Source: Candidatus Eiseniibacteriota bacterium (GTDB taxonomy: Bacteria; Eisenbacteria; RBG-16-71-46; JABDJR01; JAWXBZ01). Taken from it: a DNA stretch of 13,270 nt. Under the pieces are notes generated by a model that ran no database searches, was not told the origin of the DNA, and saw only the letters and a list, made by a program, of their open reading frames with translations. The position numbers and the translations under genes are program-made. The stretch covers positions 1 through 13,270 of the forward strand of contig JAWXBZ010000204.1 in NCBI GenBank assembly GCA_034440375.1, written 5' to 3'. The first letter of the stretch is position 1; every line of letters starts with the position of its first letter. Positions 8,022 to 10,965 of the stretch are shown here, piece after piece.

Positions 8022-8070
8022 CCTGGTTTCAGGTGAGGATTTCCTGGTGTCGGATGAGGATTAGCTGGTG
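8022..8070 (+). repeat. 21-bp imperfect tandem direct repeat covering the RBS/start region
   Basis: CCTGGTTTCAGGTGAGGATTT (8022-8042) vs CCTGGTGTCGGATGAGGATTA (8043-8063), 17/21 identical, then partial GCTGGTG containing the GTG start. Confidence 0.75.
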
Positions 8071-8520
8071 CCTGAACGACGCCTTCAACTCGACATACCC
8101 GTCTCCGCACGATGGCTTCACGTTGCCGCCAACTTCATTCGGGCGGCTGCCGAGGGGGCCGGCTTTGACGAGGACGCCATGGAGGCGATCGAGATCGCGT
8201 CCATGGAGGCAGTGGAAAACGTCATCGATCATTCGAAACTCGGCAGCGGGGACCGCCTCCAGCTTGAATCGACTTTCGATGGTCGGGACTTCGTCGTCCA
8301 GATTCGTGATCGAGGTATTCCCTGGCCGCACGAGGTCACCTCCGGAATGGTGGGGCATGACATGCCACCCCCCGACGCACCGCGCGGTCGCGGGATCGCC
8401 ATGATGCGGGCCCTGATGGACGAAGTGACTCCCTGGCAGGGAACCGACGGCGAGAAGGTCCTGCGCATGGTCAAGCACCGGGCAAACGTGGACGCCGCTG
8501 GTTCCTCCGCCCACGCATGA
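8068..8520 (+). CDS. RsbW/SpoIIAB-like anti-sigma factor Ser kinase (HATPase_c_2)
   Basis: N-box MEAVENVIDH, G1 IRDRG, G2 GRGIAMMRALMDEV; 150 aa; GAGGA 7 nt before the GTG. Confidence 0.9.
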   Translation: MPERRLQLDIPVSARWLHVAANFIRAAAEGAGFDEDAMEAIEIASMEAVENVIDHSKLGSGDRLQLESTFDGRDFVVQIRDRGIPWPHEVTSGMVGHDMPPPDAPRGRGIAMMRALMDEVTPWQGTDGEKVLRMVKHRANVDAAGSSAHA

Positions 8521-9725
8521 CCCACCAGTTGGTCCTGGTATCCCTTTCCGGTCCCGATCGCCCTGGTCTCCTCGGCGACATCACCGCGACCCTTGCCGAT
8601 GCCGGTTTTCGCCTGGTCGACATTCAGCAGGCGACGCTTCTTGACTGGCTGGCCCTGTCGATCCTGGTCGATGTCGGGCCCGGTGCCGAGCCTCCCACCC
8701 GGCTGCTCCGTGCCATTGGGGGCACGGCCCTGGCTCTAGGCCTGAGCGTGGATGCCAGGCTCATCGAAGCCAGCGAGGCCAGTCGCCTTGGCCGACGCGA
8801 TCTGTGGGCCCTGACCATTCTGAGCGAGGGTTTGGAAGTGGCCACGGTATCGCGCCTGGCGCGTGTCGTCGGTGAACATCAGGCCAATATCGTCACGATC
8901 CACCGGCTGGCCGAGGAAGACCTCTCGGCCGTCGATTTCATCCTCGACGTCACCAACACCCCCGACCTGGCCGAACTGAAGTCGGAACTGCTCCACCTGT
9001 CCGACACCACGGGAATCGACCTGGGCCTCCAGCCGGAAGATGCTTTTCGAAAGAGCAAGCGGCTGGTCGTTTTCGACGTCGACTCGACACTCGTGGACGG
9101 TGAGGGAATTGACGAACTGGCGCGGGAAGCCGGCAAGGGAGAGGCGGTAGCCGCACTGACCCGCCAGGCGATGGACGGCAATCTTGACTTCGCCGATGCC
9201 CTGCGTCGCCGGGTTGCGCTCCTGGAGGGGCTTTCGCTCGAGGGCGTCCATCGCGCCGCCGAACGGCTGCCGCTCACCCCCGGAGCCCACCAGACGGTCG
9301 AGATTCTCAAGGAGCTGGGATATCGGGTGGCCGCCATCAGCGGTGGATTCGACCTTCTCGTGGAGCCGCTCCGGCGAAAGCTTCAACTGGACCACGCCTA
9401 CGCCAATCGACTGGAAGTGAGCTCCGGGCTGCTGACGGGCCGTCTGATCGGCGATCTGGTCGATGGTGCCGGCAAGGCCGCCCTCCTGCAATCCATTGCG
9501 GCCGAGGAACGAATACCATTGGAGCAGGTGGTAGGGGTCGGGGATGGGGCCAACGACATTCCCATGCTCCAAGCCGCCGGGCTCGGGATCGCTTTCGGAC
9601 GACGCGACAAAATTCGAAGGGCTGCCCAGGGGGCCATTCGAAAGCAGGATCTGAGCGGAATCCTTTATTTACTTGGAGTTACGGGCCGCGACCTGGCTGT
9701 GCTCCGCCGGCGGCGGCAAGCTTGA
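8517..9725 (+). CDS. serB: Phosphoserine phosphatase SerB with two N-terminal ACT domains
   Basis: ACT start LSGPDRPG; HAD motif I FDVDSTL, motif II ISGGF, motif IV GDGANDIPML; ATGA overlap with the upstream gene. Confidence 0.95.
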   Translation: MTHQLVLVSLSGPDRPGLLGDITATLADAGFRLVDIQQATLLDWLALSILVDVGPGAEPPTRLLRAIGGTALALGLSVDARLIEASEASRLGRRDLWALTILSEGLEVATVSRLARVVGEHQANIVTIHRLAEEDLSAVDFILDVTNTPDLAELKSELLHLSDTTGIDLGLQPEDAFRKSKRLVVFDVDSTLVDGEGIDELAREAGKGEAVAALTRQAMDGNLDFADALRRRVALLEGLSLEGVHRAAERLPLTPGAHQTVEILKELGYRVAAISGGFDLLVEPLRRKLQLDHAYANRLEVSSGLLTGRLIGDLVDGAGKAALLQSIAAEERIPLEQVVGVGDGANDIPMLQAAGLGIAFGRRDKIRRAAQGAIRKQDLSGILYLLGVTGRDLAVLRRRRQA

Positions 9726-9750
9726 CAGTTTGTACAAGGGTCTGTAAACT
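9722..9750 (+). promoter_or_regulatory. Near-consensus sigma70 promoter overlapping the serB stop codon
   Basis: TTGACA (9722-9727), 17-bp spacer, TAAACT (9745-9750); predicted +1 near A9757. Confidence 0.8.
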
Positions 9751-9756
9751 CTACTC

Positions 9757-10004
9757 ACCTCTGGCACGGTGTGAAGCAATGCCTCGACCTGATTGATACG
9801 ATTGAGGTAGGGGCTTCAGGTATTTAGGACTCACGATGTAAAAGGACAAATCGTCAATTTTTGTTGACGATTCGAACCTTTGAGCCGATCAGGGGTATGA
9901 AACGGGCAACACGTTTTCGCGAGGTTAACCGGGACCGCGCCGCCCTGCGGGTTCTAGGCGACACCAAGCGATGGGGGGCAACCGCAAGGTTGCCTCCTTT
10001 TTTT
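9757..10004 (+). ncRNA. Candidate structured non-coding RNA (~250 nt), possibly a divergent 6S RNA
   Basis: Bounded by a strong promoter and terminator with no credible CDS; 5'/3' pairing GGTGT/ACACC and GCCTCGACCTG/CGGGTTCTAGGC; central perfect hairpin AATCGTCAA/TTGACGATT. Family assignment not established. Confidence 0.65.
9973..10004 (+). terminator. Intrinsic terminator
   Basis: GGGGGCAACC-GCAA-GGTTGCCTCC stem (10 bp, one G-U) with GNRA loop, followed by T7 (9998-10004). Confidence 0.9.
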
Positions 10005-10152
10005 ATGTTCAAGATCTTTTCCACAATCGTTTGTCACTTTGCAGGCCTTTTTTGCGCATTACTGTTTGCCGCTGGGAGAGAGTCAGGGGGGACACCAAAC
10101 CGCGCCGTCCGGGCAGGAACGGCCGGCTTCGTCGTTCCGGCAGGACCCAGCC

Positions 10153-10182
10153 GGCCGGGTCGGGGGAAACTCCGGCCCGGCC
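10153..10182 (+). terminator. Strong GC hairpin between convergent units (3'-end/terminator structure)
   Basis: GGCCGGGTCGGGG-GAAA-CTCCGGCCCGGCC, 13 bp with two G-U pairs; only a weak U-tract (ATCTTCATT) follows. Confidence 0.55.
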
Positions 10183-10215
10183 ATCTTCATTCGGGGCTTG
10201 CCAGTGGGCAATGGT

Positions 10216-10965
10216 TCAGCCGCCAAACATCTTCTGGATTATTCGCCTGGTTGCCTGCCGGTTCATGTCGGCAATTGATTCGACCAGGTCTATCTCCTTG
10301 GGGCAGGCCTCGACGCAGTTCTGAGCATTGCCACAGTCCTGGATTCCACCCTCTTCCGTCAGCGCATCGATTCGCTCCGAAGCATGCATGGCGCCCGTCG
10401 GGTGTGCATTGAAGATCCGCACCTGGCTGATGGCCGCCGCCCCGATGAAGTTATTGCCGGTCGTCACCTGGGGGCAGACCTCGAGGCAACATCCGCAGGT
10501 CATGCACCGCTGCAGCTGGTAGTACACCTGCTGCTTTTCCGGGCTGAAACGCGGACCGGGTCCCAGGTCATGGGTGCCGTCGATCGGTACCCAGGCCCGG
10601 ACCCTTTTCAATGCTTCGAACATGCGGCTGCGATCGACAATCAGGTCACGGATCAGCGGAAACTTGCTCATCGGTTCGAGGCGAATGGGTTCCGTCAGCT
10701 GGTCGACCAGCGCACTGCATGATTGGCGCGGCTTGCCGTTGATGACCATCGTGCACGAACCGCAGACCTCCTCCAGGCAGGAGCACTCCCAGGCCACCGG
10801 CGGTACGGTCTTCCCGTCCCGCGTCACCGGTTTCTTCTGGATATCCTGGAGGCAGGTGATGACATTCATCCCCTGACGGTAGGGGACCTCGAAATCCTCC
10901 CACCTCGACGACTGATCCGGCCCGTCCTGCCTCCGAACACGCATCCGCACCATTCGGCCGATCAT
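10216..10965 (-). CDS. sdhB: Succinate dehydrogenase iron-sulfur subunit (Bacillus-type)
   Basis: CLEEVCGSC..C [2Fe-2S], DLIVDRS, CMTCGCCLEVCP, CGNAQNCVEACP motifs. Start ATG 10965 has GGAG upstream; ATG 10980 is an alternative. Confidence 0.95.
   Translation of the reverse strand: MIGRMVRMRVRRQDGPDQSSRWEDFEVPYRQGMNVITCLQDIQKKPVTRDGKTVPPVAWECSCLEEVCGSCTMVINGKPRQSCSALVDQLTEPIRLEPMSKFPLIRDLIVDRSRMFEALKRVRAWVPIDGTHDLGPGPRFSPEKQQVYYQLQRCMTCGCCLEVCPQVTTGNNFIGAAAISQVRIFNAHPTGAMHASERIDALTEEGGIQDCGNAQNCVEACPKEIDLVESIADMNRQATRRIIQKMFGG

Follow-up and report, generated by a model that had tools for sequence, protein, structure and literature searches.

MicX and ArgX, the latter lying after argR, are small RNA (sRNA) genes that are found at the 3' ends of mRNAs and have a promoter of their own, and RsaE/RoxS are sRNAs with C-rich loops. 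Almost nothing is known about the RNA regulators of uncultured phyla that lack Hfq and CsrA. Two described systems come closest to the present case: DapZ, whose conserved promoter is described as lying shortly before the stop codon of dapB (PMC9438474), and the 6C sRNA, which is reported to bind mRNAs through C-rich loops in a chaperone-free manner (PMC6486639). Here, we analyzed a 13,270-nucleotide (nt) stretch of DNA from a Candidatus Eiseniibacteriota bacterium (contig JAWXBZ010000204.1; the whole stretch is hereafter called the window), in which an RNA gene is predicted at 9757-10004 of the plus strand, behind a serB-like gene.

We are confident that this locus is a real, selected and structured RNA gene. 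The RNA represents a new sRNA family that is outside Rfam, is not 6S RNA and occurs in a narrow uncultured lineage; it belongs to the broad kind of bacterial small RNAs. It probably acts in trans, and on balance we lean towards the complete proposal of an independently transcribed, multi-hairpin sRNA, trans action included. That it works by base pairing through a C-rich loop is a more tentative suggestion. The features to which the following text refers are listed below, all on the plus strand.

8517..9725, plus strand: serB-like gene for an ACT-ACT-HAD phosphoserine phosphatase (from the list of open reading frames (ORFs); Pfam HAD 3.7e-27, ACT_6 3.5e-16, ACT_PSP_2)
9722..9750, plus strand: sigma-70-type promoter (-35 hexamer TTGACA at 9722-9727, 17-nt spacer, -10 hexamer TAAACT at 9745-9750)
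9757..10004, plus strand: predicted RNA of approximately 248 nt (match of the covariance model R1 at 9755-10006, 244 bits)
9757..9770, plus strand: 5' tail ACCUCUGG..CGGU, anti-Shine-Dalgarno-like; 5' strand of helix P1, pairing with 9884-9896 in the minimum free energy (MFE) fold
9772..9818, plus strand: helix P2, outer stem UGAAGC/GCUUCA and inner stem GCCUCGA/UUGAGGU (9781-9787 with 9802-9808); pairs in all four homologous sequences
9841..9881, plus strand: helix P3, base AAAGG/CCUUU and apical perfect hairpin at 9849-9872 with the core GUCA-N8-UGAC
9900..9916, plus strand: small hairpin P4, AAACG/CGUUU; weakly conserved, outside the alifold consensus
9917..9971, plus strand: 3' domain P5, closing UCGC/GCGA, then GGU/ACC, then a long hairpin with an invariant 21-mer at 9932-9952
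9973..10004, plus strand: intrinsic terminator, 11-base-pair (bp) stem at 9973-9998, GCAA tetraloop, seven U ending at 10004

Four distinct sequences were compared: the one in the window (genome G000; an assembly of 3.96 Mb in 264 contigs, 93.7% complete), that of a genome of the same family (G001), and those of the metagenome contigs L047 and L040, the latter having lost its 5' end at the contig end. A further metagenome contig, L050, is identical to the window, and L070 is the G001 record. R1 was built from the four sequences.

The promoter agrees with the consensus at 10 of 12 positions and is thus near-consensus, and the TGA stop codon of serB (9723-9725) sits within its -35 hexamer. Two promoter-like sites were found in a 1-kb scan, compared with 0.3 expected from shuffles. 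The hexamers stay in all three sequences whose 5' side is visible (TTGACA/TAAACT in G000, TTGACA-17-TAAACT at 988-1016 of L047 and TTGACG-18-TACACT with a TG in G001), while the spacer diverges, and the juxtaposition of the serB stop codon with the promoter recurs in G001 and L047, the stop being inside or beside the -35 hexamer. At the other end, a consensus scan of the plus strand beyond serB gave no terminator before that at 9973-10004. The GCAA loop of this terminator is present in all four sequences, and four of its 11 pairs are changed on both sides; the scan listed it in L047 and L040 and not in G001, where the fold gives a 13-bp stem followed by UUUUUAC. The locus hence has what is expected of an sRNA gene, its own promoter and a Rho-independent terminator, conserved in relatives, and it shows the DapZ-type layout, in which the promoter lies at the upstream stop codon and the terminator is shared with the upstream gene. 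The RNA would start approximately 7 nt past the -10 hexamer and end in the T-tract, both boundaries being predicted from the sequence.

On the opposite strand, a second promoter-like site (window 9775-9748, minus strand, TTCACA-16-TAGAGT, 9 of 12 positions) is oriented away from the RNA, antisense to the end of serB, and probably reflects chance.

The predicted fold of the plus strand has a free energy of -92.8 kcal/mol (z = -2.81), which none of 200 shuffles matched, and its centroid lies near the MFE structure. The minus strand has a z of -2.93, but its ensemble is poorly defined (centroid -41.1 versus MFE -81.9). P2, P5 and the terminator contain G-U pairs, which would turn into A-C mismatches if the minus strand were the RNA; the plus strand is therefore taken as the RNA strand. 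The alifold consensus of the four sequences comprises 37 pairs, in which 96.6% of the cells are paired and nine pairs are changed on both sides. These pairing and covariation values were attained by none of 500 shuffles, and slid controls were 39-46% paired. Given that MAFFT misaligns some helices, six helices were checked via hand-defined strands; both parts of P2 (P2o and P2i), both parts of P3 (P3a and P3b) and the terminator are paired in all of the sequences, though the letters differ. At its second pair, the P2 outer stem has G-C, C-G or U-A among the homologues, and three pairs of the inner stem are changed on both sides (GCCUCGA/UUGAGGU, GGCGGGA/UCCCGCC or GGCGCGA/UUGCGUU). The P3 apical stem reads CGUCA/UGACG or UGUCA/UGACA, its apical pair being C-G in two sequences and U-A in two, and the P3 base reads AAAGG/CCUUU, UCCGG/CCGGA or CUCG/CGAG, with GGUUCGA/UCGAACC in L040 by eye. 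Also by eye, P1 is kept in L047 with other letters (GCUCC/GGAGC in place of CGGU/GCCG), and L047 can form AUCA/UGAU at the position of P4. Since just four related sequences contribute, the covariation counts are suggestive and not statistically secure.

The 21-mer at 9932-9952 is identical in all four sequences, though the SerB proteins of G000 and G001 share only 70% identity. The apical loop of P5, CGCCCU (9941-9946), lies within it. The GCAA loop of the terminator apart, no other internal segment is at once invariant and predicted to be unpaired in all four; the CGCCCU loop thus qualifies as a conserved, accessible candidate seed. In the 5' tail, ACCUC is common to the three sequences whose 5' end is present. 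In G000 and L047 only, the 3' strand of P5 contains an additional UAGGC that is complementary to GCCU of the P2 5' strand (9781-9787 with 9954-9959). An alternative long-range fold could form in these two sequences; the insert is absent from G001 and L040.

An earlier note, made from the letters of the window, had described a promoter TTGACA-N17-TAAACT and a GCAA-loop terminator with T7, separated by approximately 250 nt devoid of a credible ORF, and within them a perfect 9-bp hairpin at 9849-9872 extended by AAGG/CCTT and CTCA/TGAG, together with one extra hairpin. Promoter and terminator are those listed above, the extensions are present (9842-9845 with 9877-9880 and 9830-9833 with 9881-9884, respectively), and the extra hairpin lies at approximately 9900-9916. 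As to coding capacity, the overlapping ORFs at 9854-10024 (minus) and 9861-10412 (plus) have no Pfam match, each frame is interrupted in at least one of the four homologues, and the indels, 1-7 nt long, are not multiples of three. On these tests, the stretch is non-coding.

Relatives of the RNA are also present in contigs of three RNA-library runs from three studies, which correspond to 9919-10081 (X1), 9906-9975 (X2) and 9846-10033 (X3). The contigs cover parts of 9300-10400 only, the uncovered parts being uninformative, and the sequencing runs contain only 6-9% of the sampled words. X2 does not differ from the window at all. The listed differences comprise 10 in the variable middle (X3) and, beyond 10004, 13 in X1 and seven in X3; within 9913-10004 there are only 9995 T>C, by which a G-U pair of the terminator becomes G-C, and one inserted G. 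Accordingly, the approximately 80 nt at 9913-9994 carry no listed substitutions in the three contigs, this inserted G apart. As differences restart past 10004, selection seems to stop at the T-tract. Short contig pieces on 9441-9592 are fragments of conserved HAD motifs with loose ends on both sides.

Among the genomes searched, the RNA was found only in one family-level lineage. BLAST of 9722-10010 against 61 related genomes gave matches in two, G000 and G001. Full-length matches of R1 were obtained with the window and the identical L050, L047, G001/L070 and L040, at 205-244 bits, and in searches of 151 class genomes and then 151 phylum genomes (the same families, f1-f18) full-length matches were again limited to G000 and G001. 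Partial R1 matches at 17-28 bits were discarded, as they are confined to the hairpin or terminator and the top-scoring one (G047) falls in coding sequence. The sister family f2 was searched with the filters off, and R1 gave at most 7 bits in the genomes in which serB was found at E ≤ 1e-30 (four of eight). The exact 21-mer occurs at 19 loci in metagenome contigs, three of which are the RNA (L040, L047 and L050); the other 16 hold the 21-mer alone, mostly in ABC-type ATPase-like genes as judged by eye. In genome contigs it occurs at 14 loci, only that in L070 being the RNA. When up to three mismatches were allowed in 206 class genomes, the match counts were like those of a reversed-pattern control. 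A match with one mismatch in G061 was rejected, as it lies inside an ORF of an ABC-transporter-like operon. A literature query on serB and sRNAs derived from untranslated regions (UTRs), which was not exhaustive, found no published account of the RNA.

We also compared the locus with the described RNA families. Rfam cmscan of the whole window gave no match at gathering thresholds; with lax filters, 9650-10250 gave six weak matches at E ≤ 10, none of them 6S, and the three homologous loci gave none at E ≤ 1. The only one of the weak matches inside the RNA, suhB/mmgR, was dropped, being a 14-bit match to the terminator region against a cut-off of 41 bits. Likewise, the 6C RNA and RsaE/RoxS models matched neither at gathering in the window nor at E ≤ 10 in 9650-10250. 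The RNA resembles 6S RNA in being a stand-alone RNA of a few hundred nt with a strong promoter and a terminator, and the earlier note had left open whether it is a divergent 6S RNA or a stand-alone ncRNA not yet described, proposing that Rfam be searched for 6S and all other families and that homologues be tested for covariation. The Rfam search and the comparison of the homologues favor the second option: no family matches, and the promoter, the terminator and the covarying helices are kept in three homologues, with the pair changes and shuffle result given above. The genome has a full-length 6S RNA (RF00013) on another contig (G000:C180:3200-3385, minus strand; locus L002 1501-1686), which matches model positions 1-187 at 53 bits versus a cut-off of 46.4. 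The end pairing on which the 6S-like rod was based (9768-9772 with 9961-9965 and 9781-9791 with 9948-9959) is complementary in this sequence, but it finds no comparative support: on the four-homologue alignment, the end-to-end rod shows two-sided changes in one of 13 pairs, its score is matched by 165 of 500 shuffles, and its end helices compete with helices that covary. The alignment supports individual hairpin domains arranged in series, with no conserved closing stem or central bubble. The 6S-like motif TGAGCCGAT is not conserved in the homologues either. With no RF00013 match, the 6S slot of the genome filled elsewhere and the rod not conserved, 6S identity was rejected. A second 6S match in the genome, at G000:C85:37792-37914, is sub-threshold at 30.4 bits.

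Upstream of the RNA, serB is present in all three loci whose upstream side is visible, and G000 and G001 share the synteny of a CarboxypepD_reg protein gene followed by serB. In the window, an RsbW-like gene of the HATPase_c_2 serine-kinase/anti-sigma type (8068-8520, plus strand) overlaps the start of the ACT-ACT-HAD gene (8517-9725, plus strand) by four bases; this pair might form a partner-switching-like kinase/phosphatase module instead of serving plain serine biosynthesis. On the downstream side, a GC-rich hairpin of 13 bp, capped by a GAAA loop, is located at 10153-10182, just past the sdhB stop (10216, minus strand), and L047 has a copy at 1427-1456 with one letter changed. The hairpin has no T-tract on the sdhB strand and may be a 3' stabilizer of the sdh operon or an atypical terminator.

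According to the proposal that we favor, an RNA of approximately 248 nt with several hairpins would be transcribed independently from the promoter whose -35 hexamer contains the serB stop codon, and it would end at the intrinsic terminator, which would also be the first to act on serB transcripts. The predicted architecture consists of the anti-Shine-Dalgarno-like 5' tail held in P1, the covarying P2 and P3, the invariant P5 with its CGCCCU loop, and the terminator. The RNA would be a trans regulator with the invariant P5 hairpin as its recognition element, and the likeliest mode would be Hfq-free pairing with G-rich, Shine-Dalgarno-like sites in mRNAs, as with C-rich-loop sRNAs. Trans action with P5 is favored because of the DapZ-like layout, because no Hfq or CsrA gene was found in the 93.7% complete G000 assembly, and because the invariant C-rich loop is exposed in the predicted fold, as in 6C.

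Several points weigh against this proposal. The covariation rests on four close relatives, for which a shuffle control overstates significance, and the P5 stem never covaries (none of nine pairs changed on both sides). Each of the three sequences with a 5' tail has it locked into a helix; in G001 the partner is a nearer strand, and P1 encloses other domains there than in G000 and L047. The RNA-library data are assembled contigs, which may contain DNA, do not prove transcription and cannot show transcript ends, and contig X1 extends 77 nt past the terminator. Targets were sought among 5,739 candidate starts, taken with a crude filter from ORFs with a GC3 signature; the duplexes of P5 with these start regions gave a smooth distribution without an outlier (best -42.3, mean -22.1, standard deviation 5.4 kcal/mol). 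For the 5' tail, the top partner, ranking first of 5,739, was G000:C145:88-534 (plus strand), a lipoprotein-like gene of 148 amino acids, with approximately 15 bp at the Shine-Dalgarno region (-28.8 kcal/mol); it was dropped, since the G001 orthologue reaches only -16.2 kcal/mol and 37 of 323 start regions containing a Shine-Dalgarno sequence are as good. AGGGCG was not enriched upstream of starts (rank 23 of 30 permutations), the filter not being restricted to true starts.

The alternative that survives best is a protein-binding RNA, such as a scaffold, a sponge or a housekeeping ribonucleoprotein (RNP), in which a protein would recognize the stem and loop of P5 in a sequence-specific manner; the RNA would serve to titrate or guide that protein, not to pair with mRNAs. 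We consider it unlikely, and we retain it because the invariance of the P5 stem, which a loop-only seed does not require, is no less compatible with protein recognition than with a seed. Covariation is free in the other helices but absent from that of P5, the long substitution-free block in the three environmental relatives extends over this domain, the near-consensus promoter suggests high constitutive expression, and the duplex scans gave no convincing mRNA target. Conversely, no candidate gene for an RNA-binding protein is linked to the RNA, its neighbors being serB, the RsbW-like kinase and sdhAB or a GNAT gene; neither a CsrA nor an Hfq gene was found, CsrB-type repeated motifs are not seen at conserved places by eye, and no known family of protein-binding RNAs matches. 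A bolder version, to which we give still less credence, would make the RNA the founding member of a new class in a little-studied, uncultured bacterial phylum: a structured, highly expressed housekeeping RNP, not an ordinary base-pairing sRNA, whose nearly unchanged 3' domain of approximately 80 nt, with the identical 21-nt core, is a specific protein- or ribosome-binding module, and whose anti-Shine-Dalgarno-like 5' tail, masked by a Shine-Dalgarno-like strand, is a switchable element.

A less probable explanation is that the element is only the 3' UTR of serB, a cis-acting terminator and stability element of its mRNA, the promoter being a conserved coincidence of the C-terminal codons of serB. 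It draws on the position of the terminator, the first downstream of serB, and on the serB linkage in all three informative loci; in addition, the -35 hexamer overlaps the coding sequence, so the protein could account for part of its conservation. However, the -10 hexamer lies outside the coding sequence and is kept (TAAACT, TAAACT and TACACT) amid the diverging spacer, and a plain terminator has no need of 250 nt that contain four covarying helices plus a 21-mer without any change. Furthermore, serB of the sister family f2 lacks such an element; in three loci inspected, the next gene, short-chain-dehydrogenase-like by eye, begins approximately 60 nt on.

The gene downstream of the RNA varies: G000 and L047 have sdhB, which is convergent, and G001 and L040 have a GNAT gene on the same strand. 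This GNAT gene encodes a two-domain protein (Acetyltransf_1 and Acetyltransf_18; L062 8504-9448, minus strand, for G001, and L040 3-986, minus strand) and begins approximately 55-60 nt beyond the terminator, with no promoter-like site between. In these two of the four loci the RNA could accordingly be read as a cis leader, a riboswitch or attenuator, for the GNAT gene, the G000 and L047 copies being orphans. Yet the RNA is fully conserved in G000 and L047 (244 bits) next to sdhB, and a search of G000 with the GNAT gene of an RNA-linked locus as the query found no homologue. There is also no conserved antiterminator: the best partner of the 5' strand of the terminator lies at positions 192, 109, 53 and 123 of the four sequences, and the alternative pairing (-10.7 to -18.1 kcal/mol) is weaker than the terminator (-19.0 to -24.5 kcal/mol). 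No riboswitch family matches. Because the downstream genes differ among the loci, the RNA appears to be independent of the downstream gene, and this variation, the missing GNAT homologue and the lack of a conserved antiterminator together make a riboswitch or attenuator very improbable.

Even less can be said for the absence of any function, by which the promoter-like site, the hairpins and the terminator would have arisen by chance in an intergenic spacer. GC-rich genomes fold readily, as the z of the minus strand illustrates; nevertheless, the hexamers, the compensatory helices and the 21-nt block persist between genomes with just 70% SerB identity, and conservation drops sharply right past the T-tract. 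Least credible of all is a divergent or second 6S RNA that binds the RNA polymerase holoenzyme, for which speak an abundant-looking RNA with its own strong promoter, ends that can pair in G000 alone and two short strings that recall 6S motifs, and against which stand the missing 6S match, the full-length 6S RNA on another contig, the unconserved rod in place of which separate hairpin domains are found, and the absence of TGAGCCGAT from the homologues.

An independently transcribed sRNA that acts in trans thus remains the reading that we prefer. The gene model of the locus is clean, comprising five helices besides the promoter and the terminator; the R1 model can serve to collect further members, and the invariant hairpin is an obvious handle for pull-down or mutagenesis. 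The analysis also corrects a tempting but wrong annotation as 6S RNA. Compared with the chaperone-independent sRNAs with C-rich loops from high-GC or Hfq-poor bacteria (6C/B11 and RsaE/RoxS), the serB-linked RNA is alike in having an invariant C-rich loop, CGCCCU, that is predicted to be exposed, and an intrinsic terminator; its genome, too, is GC-rich and has no detectable Hfq gene. It differs in having one such loop, not two or more, with three consecutive C rather than four to six, in that its stem is also invariant, and in lacking an Rfam match to these families. The likeness to DapZ concerns the layout: the promoter lies over the last codons and stop of the upstream gene, here serB, the only terminator is shared with that gene, and the position behind this one gene is kept in all three loci that show it. 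The serB-linked RNA has no sequence relation to DapZ, is much longer, with approximately 248 nt and five helices, and comes from a genome in which no Hfq gene was found. If its trans action holds true, the DapZ-like arrangement of a promoter at a stop codon would extend to a lineage remote from the enterobacteria, the group for which it was defined.

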